DNA of 64,000 nt from Gammaproteobacteria bacterium (GCA_963662545.2 CAXXLL010000002.1:736001-800000), one strand, 5' to 3'. Counted from the stretch's first letter, positions 1 to 34,225 are shown. Notes: a model not told the origin generated them from the sequence alone. Translations and numbers: made by a program.

Positions 1-54
1 TTACTTCCCAGGGATGCTCACGGCGTATTTGGGGTCAGTGTAAAAACTCGCGAA

Positions 55-136
55 GACCGCTTCGGGTCGGTAGCCGCCTGATCGCGGCAGTGCAGCACTA
101 GTAAGGATTACGTCTGCAGTACCTTCAATAGCGGTC
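55..136. repeat. Hairpin repeat family A, copy 1
   Basis: gaccgcttcgggtcggtagccgcctgatcgcggcagtgcagcac...gtctgcag...agcggtc; related blocks at 1107, 3891, 5219, 8196, 9455 and 12863. Confidence 0.75.
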
Positions 137-226
137 GCCGAGTTGAAGCAAAAAGCAAGACCTTGACCCGGCAGCCCCTAAGGGGCAAAGCGCGGGCACG
201 CTGGTCTTTATCTATTGCTTAAATAT

Positions 227-964
227 CTAATGTGGGACATGAACTCCTGCAGTGGCAGATGATGCAAAGGATGCCACCATCGCAGCCCACATCTCTGTGC
301 TTACAAACAAACTACCAAACGTGCCGCCCACAAAAAAACAGACAAAACCTAACGTTATGCCCAGTGACAGTCGTTTGAGTTGTCTAAAATCCCGGTAGAT
401 CATGAAGCCTATAAAAACCGCTGCGAAAAACAGGACGATCATTTGTGCGTTTTTCGTTGTAAATGTGGGAAAGCTGGGCTGAACGATATTTCGAATCAAA
501 CGATCAAAGCCAGGCACAGTTAATAGCGCTGCGGCCATAATCATCAAACGCTTATGTACCTCAGGTTTTCGATGAAAATAAACGCCGACGGCAACGCAGC
601 AGGTAAATGCTGAGGTCAGAATAATATTAAATCGCGCACCACCCGTGATATGCCCACCTGTGCCGGTTAGATAGGCTACCGCCACATAGGTGAGAATAAA
701 TACACTGATCGTAATAAATGCCGAAACAATGCCTAACTCTCGATGCAGGACTCGTCTATTTTTCAAGATCAGCCATGCCTGTAAAATGGCCGCGAAATAC
801 CAGAGCGTAAACAGGACGCCATGAAAATTCATCCATACTGGCAGGGGATCATCAAAGAACCGGGGTCTTAGAAAAAAGCTCGGGACGAAGCCGCCAAGAC
901 AAAGAATAGCCATGACAATGAATGAGAAAAAATAGAACCGGTCCTGGGACATCGGCGTAGTCAT
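227..964 (-). CDS. Multi-pass membrane protein, unknown function
   Basis: 245-aa ORF with about 7 hydrophobic segments; HRELG and HKRLM motifs; upstream GGAG RBS. Confidence 0.8.
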   Translation of the reverse strand: MTTPMSQDRFYFFSFIVMAILCLGGFVPSFFLRPRFFDDPLPVWMNFHGVLFTLWYFAAILQAWLILKNRRVLHRELGIVSAFITISVFILTYVAVAYLTGTGGHITGGARFNIILTSAFTCCVAVGVYFHRKPEVHKRLMIMAAALLTVPGFDRLIRNIVQPSFPTFTTKNAQMIVLFFAAVFIGFMIYRDFRQLKRLSLGITLGFVCFFVGGTFGSLFVSTEMWAAMVASFASSATAGVHVPH

Positions 965-1106
965 AAAATTTTCTCCACCGAACTAACTCATCAACTAATC
1001 AACCTGTACAAGTAGAGCAGCATTGCGAGTCCCTCTGTTCAATTCGGGTTAATTGTTAAAGTACTCTAACCAGCAACAAATCGATTCGCACGGCTGCAGC
1101 TTCGCT

Positions 1107-1191
1107 GATGTAGCCTTAGGGTCGTGAGCCGCCTGATCGCGGCGGTGCAGCACTGTTGTAGATTACGTCTGGAATAACCTCGGAAGCGGTC
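1107..1191. repeat. Hairpin repeat family A, copy 2
   Basis: gggtcgtgagccgcctgatcgcggcggtgcagcac...gattacgtctggaat...agcggtc, very similar to copy 1. Confidence 0.75.
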
Positions 1192-1332
1192 GTCCATTAG
1201 CGTTTGGCGACGTGAGCGTGACGAGCGGCGGCTCTCGACCAATATCGAACTCGATCATGCTCGCTGCCAATTTTTACTCTGGCCCCATTTATTTATCGAG
1301 TTGAACCGGCTCCGCCTTACACAGCGTCGCTC

Positions 1333-1710
1333 TTACAATGGATCTTTCTGCTTCACAAACGTCTGCTTGCGTACGATTTTATCGCCCTCGAAGTAAAGCA
1401 AATCAAGTCCTTTCAACACCACTGGTGCGCCGTCCTTTTCCATATGCAGATCCCAACCGCTCATGATCTTGCCGGCGTCAGCGTCAATAAAGGTGTCGTC
1501 TTCTATGAATTCCATTTTGCCGAACTTGCCGTCGAATTGGGGAGCAAAGGCCTCGCGAACTGCGTCCTTGCCATCGTTAATCTTGCCATGCAGCTCTTCA
1601 TAAACGGCGTCATTGGAGAAAAATGACATGACGTCATCGAGATCGTTACGATTAAATGCGTCGAGGAATTTCAGTGTGATTGCGTAAAGTTCGCTGTGTC
1701 GTTCTGACAT
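1333..1710 (-). CDS. NTF2/SnoaL-like domain protein
   Basis: FLDAFNRNDLDDVMSFFSNDAVYE and GLDLLYFEGDKIVRK patterns; AGGAGG RBS. Confidence 0.85.
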   Translation of the reverse strand: MSERHSELYAITLKFLDAFNRNDLDDVMSFFSNDAVYEELHGKINDGKDAVREAFAPQFDGKFGKMEFIEDDTFIDADAGKIMSGWDLHMEKDGAPVVLKGLDLLYFEGDKIVRKQTFVKQKDPL

Positions 1711-1830
1711 GGTGATTCCTCCTTTGTGCGTTGAAATGGATTGTACAACCTTCTTCGCGGGCGCTCTGGGAGACTCTCGGATCCCTCACCCAGTAAGTTG
1801 AATAAATTTATATGGGTGGCTGCAAAGGGT

Positions 1831-1990
1831 CTATTGTGTTGAAAAAGTCCGATTCGCCGTCGGTCGCGACGTGCGCAGAAAAACCGACCGCTCAGGATCG
1901 CCTATAAGCGACGATCGGCACTCCGGTAATGGTTTGACGACCCCCAAATATATCGAAATCGTATGCCGTACGACTTTTTCAACAGAATAG
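1831..1990. mobile_element. 160-bp MITE with IS1182/IS5-like ends
   Basis: 19-bp terminal inverted repeats ctattgtgttgaaaaagtc / gactttttcaacagaatag (1 mismatch); no credible coding content. Confidence 0.7.
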
Positions 1991-2046
1991 GCCAGCTGCG
2001 GACGTTCACGCCACCAACACCCTCGGATATGCTGCCCGTTGGAATT

Positions 2047-2175
2047 GCCCCGCCTGGCCGGCGTCACCAACGCACGGTATTTGCTGTTCGGCGCGAAAAC
2101 CCCATGGAAGCGTGTCAGGTCGACCCGCAGTTTCGGCACCAGGGCCGCCAGCCGGGCGATGAAGTCCAGTGGGCT
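2047..2175 (-). pseudogene. IS91/ISCR-family (Y2 HUH) transposase C-terminal fragment
   Basis: Translates PLDFIARLAALVPKLRVDLTRFHGVFAPNSKYRALVTPARRG, a characteristic IS91/ISCR segment; rest of the gene absent. Confidence 0.8.
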
Positions 2176-2187
2176 TTTCTAGTTCGA

Positions 2188-3552
2188 TCAACGCCCGCTT
2201 GTAAGATTCGAAACATCGAAGGTCCGGCGGACCTTCGATGCACTCATCGTCGGATGTGATGTGGGCAGCCCAATTCCCACCGACCCACGGTCGTTCTTGT
2301 GGTCGATAGAAATTGACGCGCGCCGGATCACGACGCTCTTCTCTTCCGCGGCCGACCTGCCCCGCATATCTTGTGGTGCCTTGACGACGGTATATAGCGA
2401 TTTCCACAGATTGCCGCCCTTTTCGAATATCGATGCGAACGTAGCCTCGAAGTTTTCCATATCGATGAACATGATGCGGCTAGCGTAGGGGTGGTCCTCC
2501 CACACCGGGGTCAACTCGACCACATAGCACGGCCGTACCTGCCAGCGGTCGTTCGGGATGCGGCTGCTGGGACCATAAAATCTGGCGCTTTCGTGTTTCG
2601 AATTCGCGACGAATAATATCGACTTTTGCCCGATGTAGGTCCATTTGAAATCGAACACGCGCCCTGAAAAGACGGCGAAGTCGTCGAGCGTAAAATCGGT
2701 GCCCATGAACGAATCCGCGCGTTCCTTTGCGGACAGTCGCCGCACGCGCCGCTGCGTCGGAAGATAGGAATTCACCTGGTCGTCTTCGTTAGCGAAGGCG
2801 CGCTCGACCACGAACTTAGTACCCTTGACATCGAACGGTTCGACGAACTCGAAGAAATCCTTCCATAGTAGCCGCTTAGCGTCATCCAGATTGAACCGGT
2901 ATTGTTGATCCGGAAGCATCGCAATATGGCTGAGATACGCCCGCTGGTAGGACATCATCATGAAGCGATCGACTGTGCCACCGCCTTCGAGCCCTGGGGT
3001 CAGTACGGCACTCTCGCCGCCGGCCGTCGGGCGCACCAAGTTGATCTTAATCCCAGCCGTTTTGTAACCGTAGTACTGCCAGCGCTGGATGTGATTCCAC
3101 GCAACCATCTGGCCTGCATCATCGGGTGAGGCTGCGGCAATCCGGGCGTGCGAGAATGGCAAGCCGGCAGCGTAATTTTCGAGTGCGCCGTCGACCCCTA
3201 GGCTGGCGCGATCGCCTCCGTTTACAGTCGCTTCTTGGTACGTCGCCGGTGCTCCGAAGTGGTAGGGCGCTTCGATTTCAACGGCGACTTCGGGAAACTG
3301 TAGGTCGTCGAAAAAACCAGGGACGACGAAGGGTCTTAGTAGTTCGAGATCCTCGACCCCGACGATCGTTCCCGCAATTGGGCCATCGTGTGCGTAGCGA
3401 TATTCTTCCAACCACGCGAGTACGCCATCTCGGGTTGGTGCGGCCAGGGTCGTTTGCATCATGATCATCGCGATAGCAACTATCAGCAGCCGCGACCATG
3501 AGGCTGCTGATATCAACAGATGATATCGGATGACGTCTTCTTTAAAATGCAA
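2188..3552 (-). CDS. DUF1329-family exported protein
   Basis: Signal peptide; YLPTQRRVRRLS, SFMGTDFTLDD, HPYASR and FDVSNL motifs. Confidence 0.8.
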   Translation of the reverse strand: MHFKEDVIRYHLLISAASWSRLLIVAIAMIMMQTTLAAPTRDGVLAWLEEYRYAHDGPIAGTIVGVEDLELLRPFVVPGFFDDLQFPEVAVEIEAPYHFGAPATYQEATVNGGDRASLGVDGALENYAAGLPFSHARIAAASPDDAGQMVAWNHIQRWQYYGYKTAGIKINLVRPTAGGESAVLTPGLEGGGTVDRFMMMSYQRAYLSHIAMLPDQQYRFNLDDAKRLLWKDFFEFVEPFDVKGTKFVVERAFANEDDQVNSYLPTQRRVRRLSAKERADSFMGTDFTLDDFAVFSGRVFDFKWTYIGQKSILFVANSKHESARFYGPSSRIPNDRWQVRPCYVVELTPVWEDHPYASRIMFIDMENFEATFASIFEKGGNLWKSLYTVVKAPQDMRGRSAAEEKSVVIRRASISIDHKNDRGSVGIGLPTSHPTMSASKVRRTFDVSNLTSGR

Positions 3553-3890
3553 TGAGTTTGCCGGCGCATTGTCTTAGACAAGTGATCGTGTTCGATAACC
3601 GATTTTGACACTACCATAAACCTACGCAGCACCAAAACCATCTATCGGTGACATCCGAGTTTCACCAAGAATAGCAAAAACAAACGCTGTTTATCCCGAT
3701 TTTCAACAATGAATCGAGTCGCTACCCAGTGTAACCGACCGTTCGCTCTACTGAGCTGGATATTTGACGGTCGCCGCTTGTGGAAAGGCCGCAGTAACAC
3801 GCGGGTTATCGTTGCGCCAGGAACCTGTTGCAATCCGGAACGAGACGACTATAGATCGCCCGTTAACGGACGTACACCACCGCGAAAGCC

Positions 3891-3975
3891 AATGAGCACA
3901 AACGGTCGTCAGCGGTCTCCACGTGGCAGTGCAGCACTTTCAAAGATTATGTCTGGAATGCCCTTGAAAGCGGCC
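3891..3975. repeat. Hairpin repeat family A, copy 3
   Basis: ggtcgtcagcggtct...ggcagtgcagcac...gattatgtctggaatg...agcggcc. Confidence 0.7.
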
Positions 3976-4116
3976 ATCCTGCTTCTGTAGACATTATTGC
4001 TTGGGCGACTTTGATCTTGAGCAGGAGCGAACGTTCACTGTCTTAGCCTCAACCGCTATGCTACCGACTCGTTATAGAAGCGAGGTTTGAATCATGAATA
4101 GCAGAGGAACGCACAC

Positions 4117-4674
4117 ATGAACGACAAATTTCTCGGTGATCGCAGAAGAGCATTGGAGGAATCATTCTTCGCCAAGGAAAACGAAAAACTCCGCAAGGCG
4201 CTACAAGAAAAAGAGGAAGCGAAGAACAAGAAGGAGGCCCTTTCGGCCGCGTCTGGCATAACGGATGACACGGTGCTCGAACACCTTGTCGTGCTCAACA
4301 TCGGCAGTGATACATTGGCAGCGCTAGCCCTTGTCCCACTAGTAGAAGTCGCCTGGGCGGACGGCACTATGGACGATAGCGAACGCAGCGCCATTCTGTC
4401 CGCCGCCGAAGATGCAGGCCTCAGCGGTGAAAGCGCGGTCCTGCTGGACGGATGGCTGGCCACACGACCGAGCTATAAAGTGCTTTCAGCTTGGAAAGAC
4501 TATGTCTCGGCGCTTGCGAGTACGATGGATGCGGGGGCCAAGGATCAACTCAAGCAAGAGCTACTAGGTCGCGCGCGCACGGTCGCAGAGTCAGCCGGCG
4601 GGTTTCTCGGTATCGGCAAGATATCGAGCGAAGAGGAAGATAAGCTAGAAGAGTTAGCAGGTGCGTTTTCTTAG
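4117..4674 (+). CDS. TerB-like domain protein
   Basis: RRRALEESFF N-terminus, VPLVEVAWADG...ERSAIL, GGFLGIGKISSEE. Confidence 0.75.
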   Translation: MNDKFLGDRRRALEESFFAKENEKLRKALQEKEEAKNKKEALSAASGITDDTVLEHLVVLNIGSDTLAALALVPLVEVAWADGTMDDSERSAILSAAEDAGLSGESAVLLDGWLATRPSYKVLSAWKDYVSALASTMDAGAKDQLKQELLGRARTVAESAGGFLGIGKISSEEEDKLEELAGAFS

Positions 4675-4778
4675 GCTTAAGGCTCTCTGCTTGTCTAAAC
4701 GCGAGCAGCACTTTTCGCGCGCTCCCTTCGCTGCCGCTCCGGTCGGTTGCCGTAAAGCGCGGCTGAGCTTCATTAGGC
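4675..4778 (+). repeat. Degenerate attC-like site
   Basis: cccttcgctgccgctccggtcggttgccgtaaagcgcggctgagcttcATTAGGC, 12 nt before the next ATG; homologous to 8868 and 32484. Confidence 0.6.
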
Positions 4779-4790
4779 GGCAACGAATTC

Positions 4791-5176
4791 ATGACTGAAT
4801 ACGAATACTTAGATTTAATCGTCACCTCTCGCGATTCGGTCGGCTACCACGCGATGAATTACATAGGTGTAATGTTTGCGTATGTTGTTGCCGCTTATTT
4901 AGTTGGCGTGAACTTTCACGGTTCCAAGCGTTCGCGATCACAATTTTATACGCGATTTTCTCGCCATATCCGTGCATTTCTTCGCACGAATCGTTGAAAA
5001 TAAATCAAACAGCGATCATTGAATATTTCGCGAAATACAAGCCCGAGGAATCCGTCTCCATAGTAGTCTTATACGGTACAGAATTGCTGGTCGTGTTATT
5101 CGTTGGGACGTGGATACTTAGCGTAATCTTTATGATCCAGACTGGAGCGTTTAGCGATAGTAATGATGATGCCTAA
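4791..5176 (+). pseudogene. Frameshifted small membrane protein (cassette-type gene)
   Basis: Two overlapping hydrophobic ORFs (4791-4997, 4994-5176); the stop codon lies within the GCCTAAC inverse core. Confidence 0.55.
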
Positions 5177-5302
5177 CACTGCCCCGGCATTTGACTGTTC
5201 TCTTCCTTCGCTGCCGCTGATGTCCGCAATGATCGTCAGCGGCCTCCTCGCCGCAGTGCAGCACTGATTAGCGTTTTGTCTGCAATTCTCTCCATAGCGG
5301 TC
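5171..5302 (+). repeat. Left half of attC (5171-5218) fused to repeat family A copy 4 (5219-5302)
   Basis: GCCTAAC...ccggcatttgac...ccttcgctgccgct then gatgtccgcaatgatcgtcagcggcct...gcagtgcagcac...gtctgcaat...agcggtc. Confidence 0.7.
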
Positions 5303-5430
5303 GTTAGCGGTCGTTCTGTTGCTTCGAGCTTCGTGCCCCAAGCCCACTTCGGCTTACGGCCGAGGGCGTGTGAAAAGAACAGTATTGTTACGCAAATCGG
5401 GGAGTGATCGAAAACGCGCTCAAATTTTTG

Positions 5431-5546
5431 TGTCACTAAGTGACATTAGTAGTAGCGGCACAGTCGTTCGAGTTTCTGTTTTTCCCAGGGCTCAATGCAA
5501 CCCCGGCATGCAATGAGAATCCTGATGCTTTGGCATCGCGCTCGCA
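5431..5546 (+). promoter_or_regulatory. Candidate sigma54 promoter with upstream palindromic activator site
   Basis: Palindrome TGTCACT-A-AGTGACA (5431-5445); TGGCAT-CGCGC-TCGC with GG-N10-GC spacing (5531-5545). Confidence 0.35.
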
Positions 5547-5771
5547 GATTTTTTGGTCGCCATGTGCGGCACCGGGCACAATAAGCGTTGCAGCACATAG
5601 TTTAGTGCGAAAAATTCAAACGAGGAGCGATTATGCCGACACCGACAAAAAGCGGCGTGGCTATTCGGATGGCTGATCACCCGACACGAGAGCCTGCATG
5701 CTGAACGGCAGACATCGTCAGCTGATTCACACCGCCTCGGTTCACACCTGAAGATTAAGGAGGACAAAAAA

Positions 5772-6533
5772 GTGGCAACCAGGAAAAAGCCTACCATCAG
5801 AACGAGTGCCGACCCCAGGCAAGCCTACAGCATGCCCTACATGTCGCCCCTGTATTTCGCGCCGCCCATGGAATACCGCGGCAACTGGTCGCAACACGTG
5901 ACGTTCAGGAGCGACCCCAAGGTCATTTCCAGATGGATCCCGAAGCAGCTGGTTCCCGATCCCGACGGTTTGATGTTTATGTTGACCAGCTATTTTTTTG
6001 CCACGGGGTTCGGTCATTATCGAGAAGCGACGCTGTGTGCACACGCCAGGTTCAAAGAAAAACCCGTGAACTACACGTTGTTTCTCATACTGGACAACGA
6101 TATGGCGATTTGCGGCGGACGGGAAATCTGGGGTTGGCCCAAAAAGATGGGGACCATCGAGGTCGATGAGAACGACGCGGTGGTGCAGGCGCGGGTCGGG
6201 CGCGGCGGTGTTGAATTAGTGCGCGCAAACGTCGTCTTGAACGAACTTGTCGATGCGAGTGCGCTGGGCGGTACCACGAAGTATGTGAACTGGAAATTCA
6301 TCCCATCGGTCAAGAATGGTGCGCCGCCGGACGTCAATCAGCTGACCTTGACCGAGCTCACCAATTTTGTACCCGACAAGGTCTATCGCGGGCCGGCCAC
6401 GATCGAGTTCGGTCGCTCTCCATGCGATCATTATGCGGAGATACCCGTCGTCGAGGTGATCGAAGGGTTTTATTACAGCTCAGACTTCACCCTGGAAGAT
6501 GGTGAAGTCATCCACGACTATTTGAAGTCATGA
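5772..6533 (+). CDS. Acetoacetate decarboxylase family protein
   Basis: GGREIWGWPKK Schiff-base lysine motif, GFGHYRE, C-terminal GEVIHDYL; AGGAGG RBS. Confidence 0.85.
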   Translation: MATRKKPTIRTSADPRQAYSMPYMSPLYFAPPMEYRGNWSQHVTFRSDPKVISRWIPKQLVPDPDGLMFMLTSYFFATGFGHYREATLCAHARFKEKPVNYTLFLILDNDMAICGGREIWGWPKKMGTIEVDENDAVVQARVGRGGVELVRANVVLNELVDASALGGTTKYVNWKFIPSVKNGAPPDVNQLTLTELTNFVPDKVYRGPATIEFGRSPCDHYAEIPVVEVIEGFYYSSDFTLEDGEVIHDYLKS

Positions 6534-6622
6534 ATGGGCCGGCCACTTTCCGCATTTCACTCCGCGTAGACGTGAATTCCGCTCGCCTCGTAGGGCGGAA
6601 TTGCTGGAGTATAAGAAAAACA

Positions 6623-8007
6623 GGGTCTACGCGGAAACGTGTGGGTTGATATTGGCATTTCTGGGTAGTGGCGGAAGAAATGCCGCAATGATTTTCAGTT
6701 TGAGGAATTCCTCATCACGATAGCCATAGGCGCGTCGTTGCAGGACCCGGATTTTGTTGTTGACCCCTTCGACCAATCCAAGACTGACTTTATTCTTAGC
6801 ATCACAATAGGAAGCAATGCCATCCCAATGGGATTCAATCAGCTCAGCAAACTTGCGATACGGCGCCAATCGCTGCCATTTCAGACTGTCCTTCCAGCGC
6901 TCGAAAAAGGCACGCGCGCCGCGCTCGGTACGGTAGTCCCAGAGTTGGCCGAAGGTTTCCTTGAGGACGTAGGCGGTGTTCAGACGCCGGTTGGCCTGGA
7001 GCAGTTTTTTCAGGGCTCGTCTGCCATCCAGATTCAGGTTCTCGCGTCGCGAGAGCAAGGTATATCGCTGGCCTTTGATGTAACTCCTGTCCTTGCCGCG
7101 GAGACGTTTGTATTCACGGCGCCGGACTTCATCGAGAGCCTTTGAGAGGTGGCGCATGATATGGAACTTGTCATAGATGATCCGCGCCTGCGGTGCGTTG
7201 TTCATGACCGAGTTACGGAACGGCTTCCACATGTCCATCGCCGCCAGTTCGATGCGAGCGCTCTTGTTCTCGCCCAATGCCTGGAAAAACAGGTCGATGT
7301 CAGCCTCTTTGCGACCTTCACCACCGACCCAGATAGGACGCCCCCGATCCAGGTCACTGACGATGACCCGGTAGTTATGTCCTTTGCGGATGGAGATCTC
7401 ATCAATACCGATGGCCCGGGGTGCTGGCATGCCCGCCAGCTCAACCTGCTTTTGCATGTACAGCTTATCGAGGTCTTTCACCGTGCTGTGGTGCAGGCGT
7501 TCCCTCTCGGCGACAGCCTGGTTCGGCATGTCCCGGCACAGCTTGCCCACCTGCATGGCAAAGCGCTGCGTATAGCGAGGGTTCTTTGCCAGCCAGTCAA
7601 GATGTTCTACCTGCACGCCGCCGCACCTCCGGCAACTGACACGCCAGCGTTCGAACTCCAGGTAGATTCGCCATCCGGCAACTGACAGGTCTCGTACTCG
7701 CAGCACCTTCTTGTCGTAACGCCCGCGGCACCGGTGAGCACAGTGAGAACAGATCGCTGTTTTTTTCGCCTCTTGAGTTGGATCACACGGGCATACCGAT
7801 CACCAAACATGCCCACCAATTTCGATGCGGCGGTAAAACCAGGGAACGCAAACAGCGCTCGGATCGACTTGGGATTCTTCATGGCCTTAGCCTACCCACA
7901 AAATGAAACCACTTTCACCCCATACGAAATCTCTGAATGTCTACATGATTTCAATGGTTTACACTTGGTCTAATTCAGAATTTACCCACATGAATCCGCG
8001 TAGACCC
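6623..8007 (-). mobile_element. ISL3-family IS, copy 1 (1385 bp)
   Basis: Inverted repeats gggtctacgcgga / tccgcgtagaccc; 8-bp target duplication GAAAAACA (6615-6622, 8008-8015). Confidence 0.95.
6627..7882 (-). CDS. ISL3 transposase, two ORFs joined by a probable -1 frameshift
   Basis: IGIDE, MDMW, DKFH and EGVNNKIR motifs; A7 run at 7760-7766 links orfA to the CSHC zinc-finger frame. Confidence 0.9.
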
Positions 8008-8195
8008 GAAAAACAAGATGTCGGCTCGCGTCGGCTGTGCATCGCGCCGGTCGAGATGCTCGAGAATGCGTTGGATGACGGCGGGATCTTTGATGCGGGC
8101 AATGACTGCGGAGCACTGTACCTGTGTGTGTGGCCTCTAGAACTATTTTCACGGTCGGGTTGGGCCGGAAGCAAGCGTTCTAAAACTGGAGCTCC

Positions 8196-8262
8196 GAGGT
8201 CCGCGTGGGGTCGTCAGCGGTCTGATCGCGGCAGTGCAGCACTGCTAAGCGCTATGTCTGCA
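8196..8262. repeat. Hairpin repeat family A, copy 5 (3' truncated)
   Basis: gtccgcgtggggtcgtcagcggtctgatcgcggcagtgcagcac...tatgtctgca. Confidence 0.7.
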
Positions 8263-8348
8263 CCGAAATTATGCGTCACAATGACACGATTAATCGCGTC
8301 AATTTGACGACCATTTATCGTTAGGCGGAAGGGGATCACTCCGCGCTA

Positions 8349-8843
8349 TTGCTAGAAGAATGGGCGTTAATCGCAGAAATCGTCGCCGCTTTGGGGGTGA
8401 TTGCTTAGCTCATATATCCTGCGGTTCAAATGCGACTCACGCGCGTGGCTTCCGAAGCGCAGCTTTCGTATTTGTCTGTGGAAGTCTATTAACGTTGGCG
8501 TACGGCCCTGATGGATAATTCAGATCTCCCCCGCGCTATTGCGAAGGGCAATCGGGGAGACGCTCTATGCGACGATGAAGAAATTCAGATTCGCGCACTG
8601 ATGGATGAGCTGTTTATAGTTTCAGCTATTTCGCATAAGAGCACGATCCATTCGGACTCGCTCCACGATCGCTCGTTAGACATTGATTATGTAGTTGGTA
8701 TTCTTGAAAAGAATTCCGGATTAATATCGCAGTGGGCGAGATTTCGAAATTTTGCGGAGCTAATATCGCCAGAATATGGGCAATCCATAGATAGACGCTT
8801 AGATCAGATTGGAAACAATCGAGGGGACGATGGTGCCGCTTGA
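8349..8843 (+). pseudogene. Degraded cassette-type gene
   Basis: LEEWALIAEIVAALGVIA membrane N-terminus interrupted by stops; C-terminal ORF 8511-8843; preceded by GTTAGGC (8320) and followed by attC. Confidence 0.5.
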
Positions 8844-8867
8844 GTTCATATTTGAAGTGAAACATCC

Positions 8868-8966
8868 ACTTAACAGAATGTTGCAGCCGACCCCTGACCG
8901 CGAGTTCCCTTCGCTGCCGCTCCGATCGGTTGCATTAATGCGCGGCTGAGCTTAGCTTTGTGTGGC
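8868..8966 (+). repeat. attC-like site
   Basis: ACTTAAC...tgcagccgac...cccttcgctgccgctccgatcggttgc...gcgcggctgagctt; imperfect palindrome with degenerate right core. Confidence 0.65.
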
Positions 8967-9054
8967 ATAGTAAATCTGTGACGTCGCGTCCGCAATCGAA
9001 AGTAGTAATTCACAGAATGATAACGTCGCGCACTCCATTATTGACGAGGAGTAA

Positions 9055-9336
9055 TTGTTGATGACTAGTCCATTGACGGCAACCGTTTTGGGGTTAGCTC
9101 TAGCCATGACATCTGGTGTGAATGCATACGATCCGATGCCTGATCCGAGGATGTCGCCAAACCCGCCGGTAACCGGATCGACACAAAGCCGAAGCGAAAA
9201 TCCGGATGCTGACAGCGGCGAACACGATTCGCGTTTAAATGATCGTACCCGTCGTCATGGAGAGCCTGAATTCGGGTCAAGCGCCAGCCGTAGAAATGGG
9301 TACAATTATGGAAGCGGTGCCCGCAGCGGCAACTAG
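9055..9336 (+). CDS. Small secreted low-complexity protein
   Basis: Signal-peptide-like N-terminus; GAGGAG RBS. Confidence 0.5.
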   Translation: MLMTSPLTATVLGLALAMTSGVNAYDPMPDPRMSPNPPVTGSTQSRSENPDADSGEHDSRLNDRTRRHGEPEFGSSASRRNGYNYGSGARSGN

Positions 9337-9400
9337 CAACGAATTGTGTGACTCTCGCTGAAATAAACACGCATATATTCAAATCTGAAGTGCAACATCC

Positions 9401-9552
9401 GCCTGGCAATATATCGTAGCCGGCACTTGATCGCGCCCTTCCTTCGGTGCCACTGATGACTGCTGTGGGTCATCCGCGGAAGTCAAAGGCGAACGTTCCT
9501 CGCATCACAGGCGATCCGTCTGGAGCGACCGCTTTGGCTCTCATAGCAGTCT
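9401..9552 (+). repeat. Left half of attC (9401-9454) fused to a family A-type hairpin unit
   Basis: ccggcacttgatcgcgcccttccttcggtgccact then gatgactgctgtgggtc...; same junction position as 5218/5219. Confidence 0.6.
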
Positions 9553-9622
9553 TTCGCCGAGTCGGAAAAGTTGGAAGCGACCAGGGCTCTCCCCGAACCG
9601 CTTTCACAGACGCGACAGCGTT

Positions 9623-9933
9623 TTAGACTTCTGTCTGCTCAGCCATCTCAAGCGCGTCATCGACCTCGACCCGGATCTCCCTCTGCTCCGCAAGACGCCA
9701 GAATACTTTTCCCAATTCCCGGCGTATTTGACCAAATATCGCTTTCTTCCGGTACTTCGGAATGAACACGACGTGATACTTACACTTCCATCGGCTGTGC
9801 CTTAAACTCCCATCTAGTCTCATGATTGACTCCCTTTCGTGATGCTCTGGCGGCTCACGTCAGGGAGTCCGTCATGGGACTCCCGGAATTGTCAAACTTT
9901 TGCGGTCTCCCCAGCAGAGCTGGGGGGTTTACC
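9623..9933 (-). pseudogene. tnpA: IS200/IS605 tnpA (Y1 HUH) 5' remnant with end hairpin
   Basis: SLRHSRWKCKYHVVFIPKYRKKAIFG; truncated before HUH; ccccagcagagctgggg hairpin upstream. Confidence 0.85.
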
Positions 9934-10093
9934 AATCTGGGCTAAGGCGAAACAAATTATCCGACCATCACTTCCTTCGGAAAACGTGCACCGTAGGACA
10001 CCAAAGTATTTGGTAATGATCGGTTACTTATGACCCCCTTAGTAACTTGTCAGTACCTTACCGACCGCGACACCCAATCCAAGGGATCTTCAC

Positions 10094-12668
10094 GTGCCAT
10101 TGAGAGACTGTGCCCGCTACTGGTTCCTGCCTCGCATCCTCGCGCTACTTTTTGTATCGGCGGCGATCTCTGAGGCAGTGTCGGCGCAAACCGATGAATT
10201 AGATCAAGTCCGCAATCTGCTACTCGTTTCCGAAGCCACCTCGGTTGCCCGGGACCTGAGCGTTTCCGACGACATGTTCGATCAAATAGCGGCTGTCGCG
10301 GTGCTGGCCGACGTCGGTGATAAGGCGGCGATCGAGTTTCTCGCCGCTGGGCTTGAGTCTACGGATTTCCTCTACCAACGTGCTGTGGTCGACACACTAT
10401 TGAGTCTGCGCAGCGCAGACGGTGTCGAAGTCTTACGTCGCTATATGGAGGCCGCTGAGGACCTGGGCTTTTTGCGCTATCTGATGGAATCGCTTGCCTC
10501 CCATCCGCTCCCGGTAATGATAAGTTTTCTGGGTCTACGCGGAAACGTGTGGGTTGATATTGGCATTTCTGGGTAGTGGCGGAAGAAATGCCGCAATGAT
10601 TTTCAGTTTGAGGAATTCCTCATCACGATAGCCATAGGCGCGTCGTTGCAGGACCCGGATTTTGTTGTTGACCCCTTCGACCAATCCAAGACTGACTTTA
10701 TTCTTAGCATCACAATAGGAAGCAATGCCATCCCAATGGGATTCAATCAGCTCAGCAAACTTGCGATACGGCGCCAATCGCTGCCATTTCAGACTGTCCT
10801 TCCAGCGCTCGAAAAAGGCACGCGCGCCGCGCTCGGTACGGTAGTCCCAGAGTTGGCCGAAGGTTTCCTTGAGGACGTAGGCGGTGTTCAGACGCCGGTT
10901 GGCCTGGAGCAGTTTTTTCAGGGCTCGTCTGCCATCCAGATTCAGGTTCTCGCGTCGCGAGAGCAAGGTATATCGCTGGCCTTTGATGTAACTCCTGTCC
11001 TTGCCGCGGAGACGTTTGTATTCACGGCGCCGGACTTCATCGAGAGCCTTTGAGAGGTGGCGCATGATATGGAACTTGTCATAGATGATCCGCGCCTGCG
11101 GTGCGTTGTTCATGACCGAGTTACGGAACGGCTTCCACATGTCCATCGCCGCCAGTTCGATGCGAGCGCTCTTGTTCTCGCCCAATGCCTGGAAAAACAG
11201 GTCGATGTCAGCCTCTTTGCGACCTTCACCACCGACCCAGATAGGACGCCCCCGATCCAGGTCACTGACGATGACCCGGTAGTTATGTCCTTTGCGGATG
11301 GAGATCTCATCAATACCGATGGCCCGGGGTGCTGGCATGCCCGCCAGCTCAACCTGCTTTTGCATGTACAGCTTATCGAGGTCTTTCACCGTGCTGTGGT
11401 GCAGGCGTTCCCTCTCGGCGACAGCCTGGTTCGGCATGTCCCGGCACAGCTTGCCCACCTGCATGGCAAAGCGCTGCGTATAGCGAGGGTTCTTTGCCAG
11501 CCAGTCAAGATGTTCTACCTGCACGCCGCCGCACCTCCGGCAACTGACACGCCAGCGTTCGAACTCCAGGTAGATTCGCCATCCGGCAACTGACAGGTCT
11601 CGTACTCGCAGCACCTTCTTGTCGTAACGCCCGCGGCACCGGTGAGCACAGTGAGAACAGATCGCTGTTTTTTTCGCCTCTTGAGTTGGATCACACGGGC
11701 ATACCGATCACCAAACATGCCCACCAATTTCGATGCGGCGGTAAAACCAGGGAACGCAAACAGCGCTCGGATCGACTTGGGATTCTTCATGGCCTTAGCC
11801 TACCCACAAAATGAAACCACTTTCACCCCATACGAAATCTCTGAATGTCTACATGATTTCAATGGTTTACACTTGGTCTAATTCAGAATTTACCCACATG
11901 AATCCGCGTAGACCCAGTTTTCTTATAGAGGCGCTCGACCATTATGACCCAGTGGTTAAAAAGTTCGCCCTGCAATCGCTCTCTCAGTTACATTTTGAGA
12001 ACCACGACTCACGAATTCACCTACTGGCGAGCGATGCCGGAGAAATCGTGCAGGTGCGGGCATACGCCTGGAATGTATTACTGGATTCGCCACATCGGCG
12101 AGAGTCGATCGAACGCCTGCTGGAAATGTCTCGGCTTGGAAGTCCCGAAGCAAAGGAAGTCGTGGCAGTGGCGCTCGGCCGTGTTGACACACCACGAACT
12201 CGCGAAGCATTGGTTGAGTTGATGTCGAGTAACGACAACCGCGTAGCGCTTGCTGCGCTTACAAGTTCTGCCGGGTTGCGGGATGAGGCAGCAGCGCGTG
12301 AGCTCGAATGGACCATCGTTTACGGTGATGGACTTCATCGTGCTGCCGCGGCTGGCGGACTAAAGCGTATCGACCCGGCGGTCGCCTCGCGTGTTACCGA
12401 GAACCTAATGTCCTGTTACCTGCTTGGTCCGTTCACGGGGATGCGCCTTGTCGAAGCGTGGGCCATGATCGATGCCGACCCAAGCACCGTATATGGTTGG
12501 GGTTTGTCCCACGAAGACGAAGGAGTTCGCATGCAGAGCATTTGGTTAATAGGTCAACGTCGCGATGTAGAATACTTAGAACGAGTTGCTGCCTTCCTCC
12601 GCGATCCGAGTCCTGCCATCCGAGGCCTCGCGGCGTGGGCGGTGTTGCGCCTGGCTAGAGGGCCATAG
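10094..12668 (+). pseudogene. Secreted HEAT-repeat protein interrupted by ISL3
   Basis: Removing the IS and one target copy joins 10094-10530 to 11924-12668 in frame (MISF-LIEALD), 393 aa with HEAT-like repeats (VALGR, LRDPSPAIRGLAAWA). Confidence 0.85.
10531..11915 (-). mobile_element. ISL3-family IS, copy 2 (1385 bp)
   Basis: Same ends and same ORF translations as copy 1; 8-bp target duplication AGTTTTCT. Confidence 0.95.
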
Positions 12669-12764
12669 CTTATCTAGCCTGTTACCAAAACCCCTGTGAC
12701 GCTCCCGAATGGACCGATTGCTGGCGCTGGCGGCCTAACGCCCACACAAACCGCCATTGGCGTA

Positions 12765-12839
12765 AAAAGGGGCAAGCACTTATTTTTGTCCGTTCCTATA
12801 TCTTCAAAAGGCAAAGAGGAAATAAGTGCGTCGCCTTTT
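12765..12839. repeat. REP-like inverted pair
   Basis: aaaaggggcaagcacttattt ... aaataagtgcgtcgcctttt. Confidence 0.5.
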
Positions 12840-12862
12840 GGGTGCTGCCGCGAATACGTAAA

Positions 12863-12947
12863 GGGCCGCTATATTGGGTCCATAGCCGCCTCATCGCTAC
12901 AGTGCAGCACCGTTCCAAATCACGTCTGCAATGCGCTCGTAAGCGGT
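12863..12947. repeat. Hairpin repeat family A, copy 7
   Basis: gggtccatagccgcctcatcgctacagtgcagcac...cacgtctgcaatg...aagcggt. Confidence 0.7.
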
Positions 12948-13053
12948 TGTCGAATTGCTTCAAGCGTTAAGTCGAGAGGGTATGACGGTTTTCGGCCACA
13001 AGCAGTCCTTCGAAAATCGCCTGCCCAGCATCGGTACACGGTGAGAAAAAGGG

Positions 13054-13114
13054 AAAGGTGCCAGGTTTATTTAGAGCGGTTCGCTAACTACCAAAAATAA
13101 ACCTGATGCCCTTT
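13054..13114. repeat. REP-like inverted pair
   Basis: aaaggtgccaggtttattt ... aaataaacctgatgcccttt. Confidence 0.5.
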
Positions 13115-13137
13115 TCTCAAAACGAGGAAGTCATAAA

Positions 13138-13587
13138 ATGTCAGATAGGGATCAAATATTGAGTTTGCTAAACAAATACAGCCACACCGTAGATGGCGGT
13201 GACATAGATGGGTTTGTCGCGTTATTCGAAAAGGGCGAATGGTACGTCGAAGGCTCTACTCCGAATCGCGGTTCGAAGGAAATTTACGATAACGTCCTGT
13301 CGAAAGTCATTATTTACAAGTGCGGGACGCCCAGAACGAGGCACGTGAATACGAACATCGAATTGTCGATCGATGAAAGCGCGGGTACTGCAAAAGGTCA
13401 ACGTTACGTGACAGTCCTCCAACAAACGGATTCACTTCCTCTTCAACCGATATTTTCAGGGCACTATTTTGACGAGTTCGTTAAAGAAGATGGGAACTGG
13501 CGTTTCGCAAAGACAACCATCCATCGTCCCATGGTTGGCGATATGAGCCAACACCTCACGAATGATGAGTTTATTGACCCGAATTAG
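13138..13587 (+). CDS. SnoaL-like/NTF2 protein
   Basis: YSHTVDGGD, GTPRTRHVNTN, SGHYFDEFVKEDGNWRF. Confidence 0.85.
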   Translation: MSDRDQILSLLNKYSHTVDGGDIDGFVALFEKGEWYVEGSTPNRGSKEIYDNVLSKVIIYKCGTPRTRHVNTNIELSIDESAGTAKGQRYVTVLQQTDSLPLQPIFSGHYFDEFVKEDGNWRFAKTTIHRPMVGDMSQHLTNDEFIDPN

Positions 13588-13601
13588 CGAAAAATAAACG
13601 C

Positions 13602-13675
13602 GGCTAACAAACCAATGAGCCCGACGCTTGACCTGTCGGTGGCGAATTAGATGTTCAAGGGGTCTGACCCCTTGA
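13602..13675 (+). repeat. Shortened attC-like site followed by a GGGGTC-T-GACCCC palindrome
   Basis: GGCTAAC...ccgacgcttgacc...ATTAGAT; tcaaggggtc-t-gaccccttga at 13655-13675. Confidence 0.5.
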
Positions 13676-13719
13676 TTAGCAGCTCATCGTGCCGCGATGA
13701 ATTCTCCTGTATTGACGTC

Positions 13720-14313
13720 CTAGCTGGCCTTCTTGAGTAGGCTGCGGTTCATCTCGAGGTATTCGGGAGGGGGCTTGAGGCCGATCGCCTGTGCCATGCG
13801 GTTAGCGCTCGCGTAAAAACAGGCAGTCGAAGTGACGCTCCAGATGGCTTCGTCGTCGAAGCCTGCATCTCTCATCGTCTGACGGTCGTCGTCGTCGATG
13901 GATTCCGCGTGCTTCAACACCTTGACGACGTAATCGAGCATTGCACGGTGCCGCTGGGAGAGATCGGCGAGCGCGTAGTTTCTCGACAGGTACTCGGTAA
14001 ACATCGTATCCCCGGTTTTTTCGCGTAGCAAGGCGCCGTGATGCGTGGTGCAATAGAAACAACCGTTGGTCGCTGCGCACACCAGCGCGATCATTTCGTG
14101 TTCCAGCTCGCTGAGCCCTGAGTCCGCGCGAAGCACCTCTTTATACGAGGTCATGAATGCCCGCAAGCGCTGGTTGTCGGTCTTGAAGAACTTCAGGAAG
14201 TTGGGCATGAATCCGTAGTTCTTCTCGATGCCCTTGACCAGCGCGGTCATCTCTTCGTCGAGATTGTCGCGATCCTTGATATCGAGCGCATAGGGTCGTT
14301 CTTCGTTGGACAT
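13720..14313 (-). CDS. AhpD/CMD-family peroxidase-related enzyme
   Basis: GFMPN, EMIALVCAATNGCFYCTTHH (E-x-CxxC-xx-H motif). Confidence 0.88.
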   Translation of the reverse strand: MSNEERPYALDIKDRDNLDEEMTALVKGIEKNYGFMPNFLKFFKTDNQRLRAFMTSYKEVLRADSGLSELEHEMIALVCAATNGCFYCTTHHGALLREKTGDTMFTEYLSRNYALADLSQRHRAMLDYVVKVLKHAESIDDDDRQTMRDAGFDDEAIWSVTSTACFYASANRMAQAIGLKPPPEYLEMNRSLLKKAS

Positions 14314-31478: not shown

Positions 31479-32489
31479 ATGGCCGACCGCAACAATCCGA
31501 ATGAATGGGGCGAAGCTCGTCAGAAATTGCACGAGGCAAGGCTATCTTGGTATAAGGCCGCATCGCCGCTGTTGATGGTATTTGTTGCTGCTGTCGCCGC
31601 TTACTGGGGCGTAGATAGGCACGCGCAAGGAATGAGGGAAGCGGAACACGACCTTGAAACATTCAACATAATGTCTCAAGTAGAAAACGAACGGAGCGTA
31701 TACGATGAAAGAATACGAAGTCAATATTTGACAAAGGCAATTGAAAGTCCTGATGACAATGTGCGCCTAAAATATTTGCGCTATCTTTCTTTTTCGAGAG
31801 ATGAGGCTGGGTTTAGGGAGTGGGCAAGCAAAGAACTAGAGCTAGTGCAAGTAAGCTTGGGAGAAGCGAAGAAACGAGCGGACGACGCAATTAGGAAAGC
31901 GCAAGAAGCGGAGAAAAAATACCGGGAGGCCGAAGCCGAAAGAATCAGCGCTGAGATTAAGGCGAAAGTCGCCGCCGAAGAACTTCAGAAAGCGCGTAAA
32001 GAAAACGTCCGCCTAATCGCGGAAAAGAGGTCCAAAGAGACAAAGGAGGCGCTCGAAAAGGCGGAAAGCGCAGCAAAACTTGCAAGAGTTGATGTTGAAG
32101 CTGCCAGAGCCCAAACGCGTCGCGGCACCCACTTAGGGAGAATTGAATTAGCGAATATCGAAGATGATAAAAAATATCTCCTGTACCACAAAACGATTGC
32201 CACCATTGCACTTTTGTTAGCCGACAGAAGCCTCATCAATAAAGAATCCGGACCGTACAAAACGTTCTGGGAGCTATATAGAAAAGATTTGATTGGATAC
32301 GAAAGCCCTGCTTTCGCCAAAATTATGGTTGAAATAGGAAAGCAATTGTTTTTATTGAGAGATGATAATTCGCATTCTGACGAGGTTTTAAAAGAACTGG
32401 TGGCGAGATTAAGAAACGTGGCGGCGGAAGAAACAAAGGACATCGAGATTTCACCATGGGCACGCTTTTATGGGCCCGCTTATTTATAA
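31479..32489 (+). CDS. Membrane-anchored coiled-coil protein (cassette gene)
   Basis: One TM segment, long E/K/A-rich region; stop codon within TTATAAC. Confidence 0.75.
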   Translation: MADRNNPNEWGEARQKLHEARLSWYKAASPLLMVFVAAVAAYWGVDRHAQGMREAEHDLETFNIMSQVENERSVYDERIRSQYLTKAIESPDDNVRLKYLRYLSFSRDEAGFREWASKELELVQVSLGEAKKRADDAIRKAQEAEKKYREAEAERISAEIKAKVAAEELQKARKENVRLIAEKRSKETKEALEKAESAAKLARVDVEAARAQTRRGTHLGRIELANIEDDKKYLLYHKTIATIALLLADRSLINKESGPYKTFWELYRKDLIGYESPAFAKIMVEIGKQLFLLRDDNSHSDEVLKELVARLRNVAAEETKDIEISPWARFYGPAYL

Positions 32490-32582
32490 CGCTGCCGCAA
32501 TGAACTTTAACCACGGCTTCGCGACAGGTGCTTTGCCGCTACGGTCAGTCGCCGTCAAGCGCGGCTGAGCTTTACGTTAGAT
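32484..32582 (+). repeat. attC-like site
   Basis: TTATAAC...ttgccgctacggtcagtcgccgtcaagcgcggctgagctttacGTTAGAT; next ATG 7 nt downstream. Confidence 0.7.
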
Positions 32583-32589
32583 TCTCGGG

Positions 32590-33650
32590 ATGCTCATGAA
32601 GCACATTTACACCGCCGCCTATAAGCTAATCGGCGCAACGAGGCCCGCGTGCGACGCCGAGGTTGTGGTTGGGAATTTCCCAGACCTGCATGGCAAGATG
32701 AGTGTCGTTTACGAGATTGACGACCACTTATTCGAAATAGACCGCGCAGCGGCAGCTGGCACTTCCATGCTCAAGGCCCTTGTGGGCCAAGCCGGAGAAG
32801 TATCAATGGAAGATAGAATTGCCAACGAAATCGCTAACATTCGAGAAGTTAGACAGTCTGCTTCCGCATTTCAAACGTATTTCTTCTCTACCGAGCAGAA
32901 GGAGAAACTGACATTTGGAACCCCAGTACCACAAATGAATTTGAAGAGTTTGTCGTGGCTATCGATGGCGCTGATAAGTCCACTATCAAGCGTAACCATC
33001 AAAAGGCAATCCAGGGCGTTATTGCCGCATTCGCTTTGGGGTCACAGCACATCAGTGGATTTACCAAAATCGCTGAGGGCGTGTACTTTATCGATGGCAC
33101 AGGAAAGCCTAATTATTCCCTTAGCTTTGGCGGTTCGGGCAAAGCTACTATATCAACAACGCTGAAAGCGGAAACGGTCGATTACGCTAAGCAATTTTCG
33201 ACCCATTTAGCGAATCACAAAGAACTTACAGACCCTTCGCGCCTTCTCGCTAGGTCGCTAGATGAAGAATCTGACGTTCTGCTTTCTTATCTATCGGTAT
33301 GGTCAGCCCTTGAGATATTTATCAACAAAGCGTTCCGTTTTTATGAGTCTGAAGCGCTCGGGAATCCAGCTAATCTCGGCATCCCGGAACCAATCGTTCG
33401 CCGTATACGGGATGTAATGTCGGACAAATACAGAATCTCTGACCGATTTTCTTTGGTGTCCAGTTCTCTCGACCCTGCGGGTGCCGATATAGACCTCGCA
33501 GAATTTTCAACTCTGAAGAAGATTAGAGATAGGCTGATGCACGGCGCCGAAGTACCGCTCGACACTTTGCCTACTGCGCGGACAGAAAAACTTTTGAGAA
33601 AGTACCTCAACTTACACGTCAGGCGAATCGCTAATCCAAAAAACCAATGA
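32590..33650 (+). pseudogene. HEPN-like (ApeA-type architecture) gene, frameshifted
   Basis: Frame switch near 32870; C-terminal YLSVWSALE...RDRLMHG (Rx4H). Confidence 0.6.
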
Positions 33651-33725
33651 AACCGACACTTGACCGCGCCTTCCCTGCGCTACCGTTCCGGTTGCCGTCA
33701 AGTGCTGCTCAACTTGGCGTTAGCG
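33634..33725 (+). repeat. attC-like site
   Basis: ccgacacttgacc...cgtcaagtgctgctcaacttggcGTTAGCG; cacttgac/gtcaagtg inverted arms. Confidence 0.7.
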
Positions 33726-33739
33726 CCCAGGAGGAATTC

Positions 33740-34225
33740 GTGCCTTATTTTCATGTACTCGTCACCGTCAAGGACGCCCCTGATTCGATACGGTGCGTCT
33801 TGGCCGACTTATCTGAACGAGAGATAGAGGCAAATTTCGTAAAGCCCTATGGAAAAGAGGAAAGCATACTTTGCGGAAACGAAATCATTGATGCCTACTC
33901 ATTAAAAACCGTTCGAATTATTCAAACTAGCGACACCAGTGAAGCTGAACGTTCCAAACTGAAGGATGAACACAATAGAAAAAATGAAGAATTTAACCGC
34001 AGCTCTGACTCACTAAAAATTATTGGCTCAGGTTTTCGGCGCGATGATGAAGACATCGCCGAAGCAGGCAACGACGTGACGACTGAATATGTCACTGGCG
34101 TTCCTGGATACCTCGACCGGAAGACTGCTGTTGCGCGGCTGTTTCTCGACAAACTTGTTGTGCCGATTGCAGTAGCCTTGATTGTCGCGGCAGCCCTGCT
34201 ATGGTCGGGGTTAAAACGAACGTGA
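33740..34225 (+). CDS. Cassette gene with C-terminal TM segment
   Basis: AGGAGG then GTG directly after attC. Confidence 0.65.
   Translation: MPYFHVLVTVKDAPDSIRCVLADLSEREIEANFVKPYGKEESILCGNEIIDAYSLKTVRIIQTSDTSEAERSKLKDEHNRKNEEFNRSSDSLKIIGSGFRRDDEDIAEAGNDVTTEYVTGVPGYLDRKTAVARLFLDKLVVPIAVALIVAAALLWSGLKRT

Follow-up and report, generated by a model that had tools for sequence, protein, structure and literature searches.

The window analysed here is a stretch of 64,000 nucleotides of a gammaproteobacterial genome (C2:736001-800000, where C2 and C3 are contigs of the same genome; positions given without a contig are those of the window). It carries six copies of a non-coding repeat, designated repeat A, found by a repeat search with starts at 51, 1106, 3890, 5217, 8195 and 12863, together with sites resembling attC, the recombination site of integron cassettes. 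Two full sites (4675-4785 and 8868-8960) read ...ccttcgctgccgct-ccg. At two further places the left half of such a site runs directly into the beginning of repeat A: positions 5205-5227 read ccttcgctgccgct|gatgtccgc (joint 5218|5219), and positions 9441-9463 read ccttcggtgccact|gatgactgc (joint 9454|9455). An echo, gcttcgct|gatg, lies at 1099-1110 (joint 1106|1107). A preliminary description of the window quoted these strings, all of which, with their coordinates, are exact in the sequence, and proposed that the right half of attC had been replaced by an A unit at the same nucleotide, near the hairpin apex, at two independent loci. Genome-wide, the joint recurs at eight sites. Repeat A has colonised integron cassette arrays and is recurrently found joined, perhaps site-specifically, to the tips of attC hairpins, a hint of a novel form of attack on these sites.

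The attC-like sites belong to a large family. A profile seeded solely with the two full window sites and run through three iterations of nhmmer gave 96 non-overlapping sites genome-wide, the strong members of which match on both strands. Fourteen of them stand in a row at C2:982-995.5 kb (minus strand) and abut, on the opposite strand, an integron integrase gene (C2:996723-997664, plus strand; TIGR02249, 462 bits against a cut-off of 265). This is one of two integron integrases above the NCBIfam cut-off; the second (C3:1527239-1528180, 461 bits) is adjoined by one attC of the 96. Since their profile family forms an array beside a bona fide integron integrase, the attC-like sites of the window are real attCs, as the preliminary description had suspected. 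Big attC arrays without an integrase are also present, e.g. at C3:1917-1952 kb.

Two attC subtypes can be distinguished, type 1 of about 126 nt and type 2 of about 100 nt, and the window sites are type 2 (consensus CCTAAC..CAGCCGACGCTTGACCGCG..CTCCCTGCGCTNCCGCTCCGGTCGG..GTCAAGCGCGGCTGA..GCGTTAGG). Testing of the inverse core sites (R'' RYYYAAC, R' GTTRRRY) gave the family consensus CCTAAC...GCGTTAGG. The type-2 arms CAGCCG(A)CGCTTGAC and GTCAAGCGCGGCTG pair, and therefore TTCGCTGCCGCT|CCGG sits in the tip loop; the earlier placement of the joint near the hairpin apex was correct, the break falling in the single-stranded tip loop of a type-2 attC.

On the plus strand of the window, the full site at 4675-4785 (B1) lies 3' of the open reading frame (ORF) 4117-4674; its left arm is degenerate and its left box decayed, with ATTAGGC on the right. 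The full site at 8868-8960 (B2; 74.7 bits with nhmmer) lies 3' of ORF 8511-8843 and has the boxes ACTTAAC on the left and GCTTAGC on the right. Both are probably decaying, because they fold no better than shuffled sequences (z +0.83 and +0.58). The attC left half at 5171-5218, 3' of ORF 4791-5176, keeps the R'' box GCCTAAC, TTGAC and the left part of the tip loop (...TTCGCTGCCGCT), and that at 9401-9454, 3' of ORF 9055-9336 (nhmmer C2:745384, model positions 4-102), has an R'' box decayed to GCCTGGC; both are on the plus strand. In the repeat search three left halves formed one family, in which 5184-5227 is joined by 8887-8930 at 61% and by 9420-9463 at 77%.

Repeat A is a module of about 150 nt in which a leader precedes a core of 77 nt and a variable tail some 45 nt long. 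The leader of 10-12 nt (GATGTCCGCT; consensus GATGTCCGCTnT) is found in most free A copies, the core reads GGGTCGTCAGCGGCC..GCAGTGCAGCAC..ACGTCTGCA..AGCGGTCGTC, and the tail ends with TTCGGCTnnCGGCCRRG, beyond which the sequence is unique. An inverted leader (GCGGACAT, at most one mismatch) was found 3' of the core in 17 of 102 distinct copies, 14 times at exactly +125/126; the 90 nt 5' of A copies, used as a control, gave one match. The core motif GCAGTGCAGCACT (at most two mismatches) has nine occurrences against 1.3 expected, a number equalled in none of 100 shuffles. A hidden Markov model (HMM) of the core gave 117 matches (E <= 0.01) in about 17 clusters genome-wide. In the largest cluster, C2:612,988-748,954, all 39 units are on the plus strand, and the window carries its last six. 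The orientation relative to attC is nearly uniform, as 30 of the 31 attC matches with an A unit within 10 kb lie on the strand of A.

All six copies in the window are on the plus strand. Copy 1 occupies 52-200 (right end approximate), with the leader GAAGACCGCTTC at 52-63 and the core from 64 (HMM C2:736064-736142, model 1-79). Copy 2 (1107-1244; HMM C2:737119-737196) follows the echo gcttcgct (1099-1106), and farther 5', at about 1064-1070, is an R''-like CTCTAAC; copy 3 (3891-4028, right end approximate) has the leader AATGAGCACAAA and its core from 3903. A right-half-only attC of type-1-like appearance (3773-3825, plus strand; model 81-133, C2:739773-739825) lies 65 nt 5' of copy 3. Copy 4, inside attC at 5219-5365, has the leader GATGTCCGCAA, its core from 5230 and the tail end CGGCCGAGG (HMM C2:741231-741305). 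Copy 5 (8196-8269) is truncated past model position 62 (HMM C2:744208-744269, model 1-62), and copy 6 lies at 12863-13011 (right end approximate; HMM C2:748876-748954).

The repeat is restricted to the genus: it is present in both of the two same-genus genomes and in none of the 38 further genomes searched within the family and class. When 185,579 species genomes were scanned for the pattern, six loci emerged, three of which are real A units, namely the two congeners and one 5.7-kb contig of a metagenome-assembled genome labelled Candidatus Poribacteria. This contig carries a full A unit with a left flank equal to that of the C3:898 kb locus of the present genome, and is either mis-binned or the result of a recent transfer.

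A structured RNA as the identity of repeat A was rejected: Rfam gave no matches in the window at gathering scores, and the repeat has no conserved fold, the consensus of 49 distinct copies having folding energies of -2.0 kcal/mol on one strand and -2.3 kcal/mol on the other. Derivation of its left part from a diverged attC right half was likewise dropped (score 20 against 15.95 +/- 3.1; 294 of 2000 shuffles reach it).

The joints were catalogued by eye from the flanks of all A units and from all partial attC matches; the census may be incomplete, and the left half at 5171 was itself overlooked by nhmmer. It comprises 18 joints between an attC left part, type 2 in all cases except one type-1-like, and the A leader. 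Eight have the tip joint ...GCT|GATG (once CATG): C2:432289, 677037, 703000, 741218 (window 5218), 745454 (window 9454) and 2567243, and C3:371147 and 2543759. With the degenerate echoes at window 1106 and C3:898 kb the count becomes 10 of 18. The other eight lie elsewhere: three are copies of one lineage with the break 8 nt farther along (CCGATAGC|CATG; C3:356541, 907948 and 356978), four break at about +11 to +46 nt (C2:697701, 1640871, 2573985 and 2569512), and in the last, at C2:1631212, the attC left part passes straight into A position 8. Since eight of the 18 joints lie elsewhere, the attC tip is a hot spot and not the sole breakpoint. The coincidence of two joints at one nucleotide, which the preliminary description thought meaningful, is borne out at eight sites behind differing upstream DNA, but the clustering of breakpoints genome-wide is partial.

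A whole A unit had also been assumed at both window joints. It is present at 5219-5365, but at 9455 only the leader and GGGTC remain (9455-9471, plus strand, 17 nt, GATGACTGCTGTGGGTC): the core motif is unmatched nearby, the core HMM is silent at this locus, and a BLAST search of 9380-10100 against the genome shows nothing A-like past 9471. The leader stops exactly at GGTC, the target of an IS5/IS1182-like insertion sequence (IS) in other A copies, and gives way to unrelated DNA; an IS-mediated deletion may have removed the remainder of the unit.

The fate of the attC right arm was followed by aligning the reverse complement of the left halves to the 250 nt 3' of the A core, with mismatched pairs as a control. 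At the first joint, positions 5372-5406 (plus strand; GAAAAGAACAGT[ATTGTTACG]CAAATCGGGGAGTG) complement 5175-5206 and score 26.3 against 15.4 +/- 2.2 for 90 mismatched pairs (maximum 21). They represent what is left of the right arm belonging to the attC of 5171-5218, with a 9-nt insert and a decayed R'. Because both attC arms flank A at 5171-5406, copy 4 looks, from its sequence, like a plain insertion between the attC tip and the right arm. At the other nine joints tested no right arm rose above the mismatched controls within 8 kb 3', and the best distant candidates, a Y2 gene fragment and unrelated DNA, were discarded. The mirror image was seen once in a congener (G001:C14): at L034:16509-16681 an attC right half with the R' box GCGTTATATGC comes immediately 3' of an A core, and this right half recurs, without A, at L035:8530-8611.

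Repeated, structure-directed joining at the attC tip is tentatively favoured, at somewhat less than an even chance, over the inheritance of one composite. The latter, possible but rather doubtful, would require that A entered a type-2 attC once or twice in the past, and that the composite was then inherited and multiplied as cassettes or arrays were duplicated and as A cores underwent homologous exchange. It is at odds with the eight tip-joint sites, which sit behind differing upstream sequences and cassettes. The pairwise identity of the eight left halves is 0.50 in the distal part and 0.77 in the 30 joint-proximal columns, compared with 0.47 and 0.77 in intact attCs, and their per-column conservation tracks the attC profile (r 0.48, with none of 5000 permutations as high); the exact GCCTAAC box is kept in four of the eight. 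Such conservation counts for several origins, because a dead half-site from one ancestor should lose it: halves only about 50% identical distally that still follow the attC profile are unlike the products of neutral decay. In addition, IntI cannot move a site without R', and the arm of chimera C3_371198 groups with an intact, neighbouring attC 500 bp away (Shimodaira-Hasegawa-like approximate likelihood ratio test, 92). The joints may thus have arisen several times.

A considerable number of results weigh against this conclusion, some of them speaking directly for the single ancestral composite. In the tree, a single group with poor resolution takes in seven of the eight left halves. A single clade of all eight costs 10.7 log-likelihood units and is not rejected by the approximately unbiased test (p 0.139), and the A-joined label is clustered, needing four changes on the tree compared with 7.0 in shuffles (4 of 500 as low). 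All A-joined left halves have TTC(G/A) at a place where TGCG or TACG stands in nine of 13 full sites. The CTGC leader variant occurs in five of the ten joints and echoes (the tip joints C3_371198, C3_2543827 and window 9455, a partial CATGGCTGT at C2_2567311, and the echo C3_898053) and in only two free A copies without an attC piece. Chimeric sites have also spread by duplication, as in the three copies of one lineage (C3:356541, 356978 and 907948), and cargo with partial A units has been duplicated between arrays at 95-99.9% identity. An attC left half was found at none of the 20 A units of the two congeners; matches to the joint pattern there had three mismatches, resembled chance and were rejected. 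The duplex energy of the remnant at 5372-5406, -31.7 kcal/mol, is reached by 58 of 1000 random windows (p about 0.06), the right arm is absent, at noise level within 330 nt, at nine of the ten joints tested, and there are no orphan type-2 right halves among the 96 genomic attC matches. Most free A copies lack an upstream attC piece, and A copies without one share no common target motif 5' of the leader, which argues against simple sequence targeting. The independence of the two window loci, as originally put forward, thus has differing cassettes and left halves as diverged as intact attCs in its favour, but a single origin is not rejected. Two structural candidates were rejected: a single long attC hairpin formed by left half plus A (z -0.27 and -1.29), and a local 10-bp stem spanning the joint (5213-5250), which by eye is not kept in other chimeras.

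Repeat A is linked to an element of 2.6 kb, copies of which lie at the head of the big A array and elsewhere, among them one at C3:6802-9408. This element, referred to as int+Y2, encodes a tyrosine recombinase (Pfam Phage_integrase) and an IS91-family Y2 transposase (Y2_Tnp, 219.5 bits; Zn_Tnp_IS91, 110 bits), that is, a Y2 HUH transposase with the N-terminal zinc-binding domain that defines the IS91/ISCR group; 20 Y2_Tnp matches were found in the genome. Its left end reads GACTAAACCGCT... or GACGAAACCGCT.... At C2:613114 and C2:623542 this end directly adjoins the right end of A; in three more copies a shorter A-like unit with the leader CACGTCCGCTT contributes the adjoining right end, and in one the left end follows AGAG, itself behind a further int+Y2 copy. 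A right end of A or of an A-like unit 5' of int+Y2 was counted in six of six real copies, two of the eight pattern matches being unrelated. The right end of the element (...CCCTTAAC) is followed by an inverted leader, AAAAGCGGACATG or ATTAGCCGACATG, at two of three distinct right-end loci, which correspond to three of four pattern matches, C2:2590715 and C3:9390 being one locus on overlapping contig ends. The tetranucleotides 5' of the left end are AGAG, AAGG, AACG or AGGG, a target duplication was not seen, and no constant tetranucleotide occurs 5' of the A leader. A resemblance of the right end to the A core, noted by eye, was dropped, as the core HMM found nothing inside int+Y2 even at E 100 and the short leader motif alone is in common. 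In this arrangement A occupies the place that terIS has in IS91, 5' of the genes, and it has the short terminal motif in common with the int+Y2 element. A 3' part of an IS91-type transposase gene (C2:677330-677560) lies directly 3' of the A unit at C2:677210 in the same orientation, and Y2 fragments abut A right ends at C2:665702-666463 (minus strand) and C3:2548244-2548483 (plus strand).

The preliminary description had expected a cognate HUH transposase, which agrees with the adjacency of A to the IS91-family element. A second HUH candidate in the window is a truncated IS200-type Y1 transposase gene (9623-9823, minus strand; 66 aa, profile positions 2-43 of 121, E 3.3e-8), and its position 150 nt from the joint 9454|9455 would suit a reading in which an IS200/IS605-type Y1 enzyme processes attC hairpins and A. 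This is very improbable: the gene is truncated, none of the seven Y1_Tnp matches genome-wide, save this fragment, adjoins an A unit or a joint, and the DNA between the leader and the gene (9472-9560) is unique. The truncated gene is not the cognate enzyme of A.

HUH enzymes generally read folded single-stranded DNA. A discrete, strand-fixed module lying beside an HUH Y2 transposase and a tyrosine recombinase, and joined at a hairpin tip, fits an enzyme of this kind, and the loss of right halves fits adjacent deletion from a fixed element end. Under repeated joining, A, which forms the left flank of the IS91-family int+Y2 element, would be a mobile module that has spread through integrase-less, integron-type cassette arrays in one orientation relative to attC. 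Its left end is joined preferentially to the exposed tip loop of type-2 attC (...TTCGCTGCCGCT|), which would be recognised as single-stranded DNA, with the Y2 transposase and/or the recombinase as the putative agent. The outcome at 5171-5406 looks like a plain insertion between tip and right arm, and at most other joints the right half of attC is gone, lost perhaps by adjacent deletion or replacement. A more far-reaching version, which is unlikely, is that the IS91-like element uses the extruded attC tip as a surrogate cleavage or termination site and so converts cassettes to A-bounded ones, giving a second, integrase-independent platform of about 110 units that shuffles cargo between arrays.

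Another explanation could be that A is the recombination site of a second integron-like platform run by the tyrosine recombinase of the IS91-like element, the attC-left::A joints being hybrid conversion products. A units bound cargo that is cassette-like in size and content and uniform in orientation; this diverse cargo, the int+Y2 pair included, starts exactly past CGGCCRRG, and AGCGGNCRTC-like motifs are, by eye, repeated in A. A-bounded cargo of 0.6-8.3 kb is duplicated between arrays (C2:442896 and C2:685028; C2:1113641 and C3:930747; C2:2582345 and C3:913862; others), and its homology stops inside the A core. The stops vary, however, from about 0 to +91, which fits general homologous exchange through A and not a fixed crossover. 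A has no conserved fold, and no recombinase gene is fixed at the array ends, int+Y2 lying inside or beside arrays in varying places. This explanation is quite unlikely. Of the putative recruitment of cassettes into the A array, suggested in the preliminary description, the part that is observed is the duplication of A-bounded cargo between arrays with breaks inside A.

Repeat A, here regarded as a site-selective mobile element in integron arrays, can be compared with other elements that attack attC. IS1111-attC elements, of about 1.3-1.5 kb, sit in attC in a single orientation, and A resembles them in disabling or splitting cassette recombination sites. Excerpts of one report place the IS1111-attC group (ISKpn4, ISPst6, ISPa21) at one specific attC location, at 'one end', with a potentially folded structure (PMC11187229). 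These elements use a DEDD transposase with a guide RNA at one attC end, whereas A is a non-coding module of 150 nt at the tip loop whose associated enzymes are a Y2 HUH transposase and a tyrosine recombinase. Group IIC-attC introns, of about 2 kb, are retroelements with a reverse transcriptase and a ribozyme, in contrast to A, which lacks a conserved fold and an Rfam match. According to passages of another report, they insert strand-specifically into the attC bottom strand and recognise the folded site (PMC3001079).

The likeness to IS91 and ISCR lies in the Y2 HUH transposase with its zinc-binding domain and in the position of A 5' of the genes, like terIS. ISCR elements sit beside integrons, and a tyrosine recombinase is present in some IS91 family members (ISfinder). 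IS91 itself lacks the latter, unlike the int+Y2 element. Known IS91/ISCR targets are tetranucleotides (CTTG, GTTC) by oriIS, whereas A has no constant flanking tetranucleotide, and A, again unlike IS91/ISCR, is present about 100 times without transposase genes. In the portions of the source consulted, IS91 is described as having terIS upstream of its genes, making no target duplication, moving via a single-stranded circle, often overrunning terIS and mobilising adjacent DNA when termination fails (PMC13181058). Miniature inverted-repeat transposable elements (MITEs) and repetitive extragenic palindromic (REP)-like repeats share with A the short, non-coding, multicopy nature, a terminal inverted repeat, present in part of the A copies, and, putatively, an autonomous partner whose termini are similar. 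A differs from them in its uniform orientation and restriction to cassette arrays, in the scarcity of the right inverted repeat (14-17 of 102 copies) and in the target duplication, which was not seen. A literature search listed no paper in which attC tips carry a repeat or MITE linked to IS91.

The known attackers of attC, IS1111-attC elements and group IIC-attC introns, act near the site ends; an HUH-linked module at the tip would, if true, be a third mode. It would also indicate how large integrase-less arrays are taken over, frozen, as attC halves cannot recombine, and reshuffled via a different repeat. The attC tip loop and the A leader form a natural substrate pair for asking whether IS91-family enzymes read folded single-stranded DNA.

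Other insertions accompany the repeat and the attCs. The IS5/IS1182-like IS, 1685 bp long (e.g. L011:4321-6005 = C2:700321-702005), encodes a 478-aa transposase with DUF772, DDE_Tnp_1 and DDE_Tnp_1_6 domains and has the ends CAGAGTGTGTGAAAACTC; this IS and its miniatures of about 160 bp adjoin position 1 in 41 of 105 A units, and none is complete in window positions 1-14000. The target is fixed (TGGGTC|IS|GGTCGTC), with one orientation and an apparent 4-bp GGTC duplication, which makes this a second, very strict site-specific insertion at A. A 22-nt inverted repeat at 1828-1849 and 1972-1993 (GGTCTATTGTGTTGAAAAAGTC/GACTTTTTCAACAGAATAGGCC, 91%) bounds a miniature element of about 165 bp, and the miniature-element end GACTTTTTCAACAGAATA abuts A units at C2:76161, 76787 and 445114 and at C3:2557861. 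In the type-1 attCs at C2:1165956, C3:1921654 and C3:1943356 the left arm is replaced by one foreign end (...AACTTATGGGTGTCCACTTTTTCGTAGGAAC), apparently that of another element inserting in attC at a fixed point.

Two more type-2 attCs lie at window 32450-32600 (C2:768477-768590) and 33610-33760 (C2:769627-769742), 19 kb past the last A. The cassette ORF 4791-5176, 5' of the first joint, is read in two frames (4791-4997 and 4994-5176), apparently through a frameshift, and weakly matches a 2TM effector domain (E 0.007). Upstream of the start of the IS200 tnpA gene are two hairpins (GGGAGTCCGTCATGGGACTCCC at about 9862-9883 and CCCCAGCAGAGCTGGGG at about 9911-9927), as is usual at the left end of an IS200 element, and a 105-nt piece at 9942-10046 recurs at C2:1636683-1636787. 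An ISL3-family IS unrelated to A (6623-8007, minus strand; DDE_Tnp_ISL3, 242 bits) has an identical second copy at 10531-11915, which splits a HEAT-repeat gene (10094-10576 and 11811-12668).

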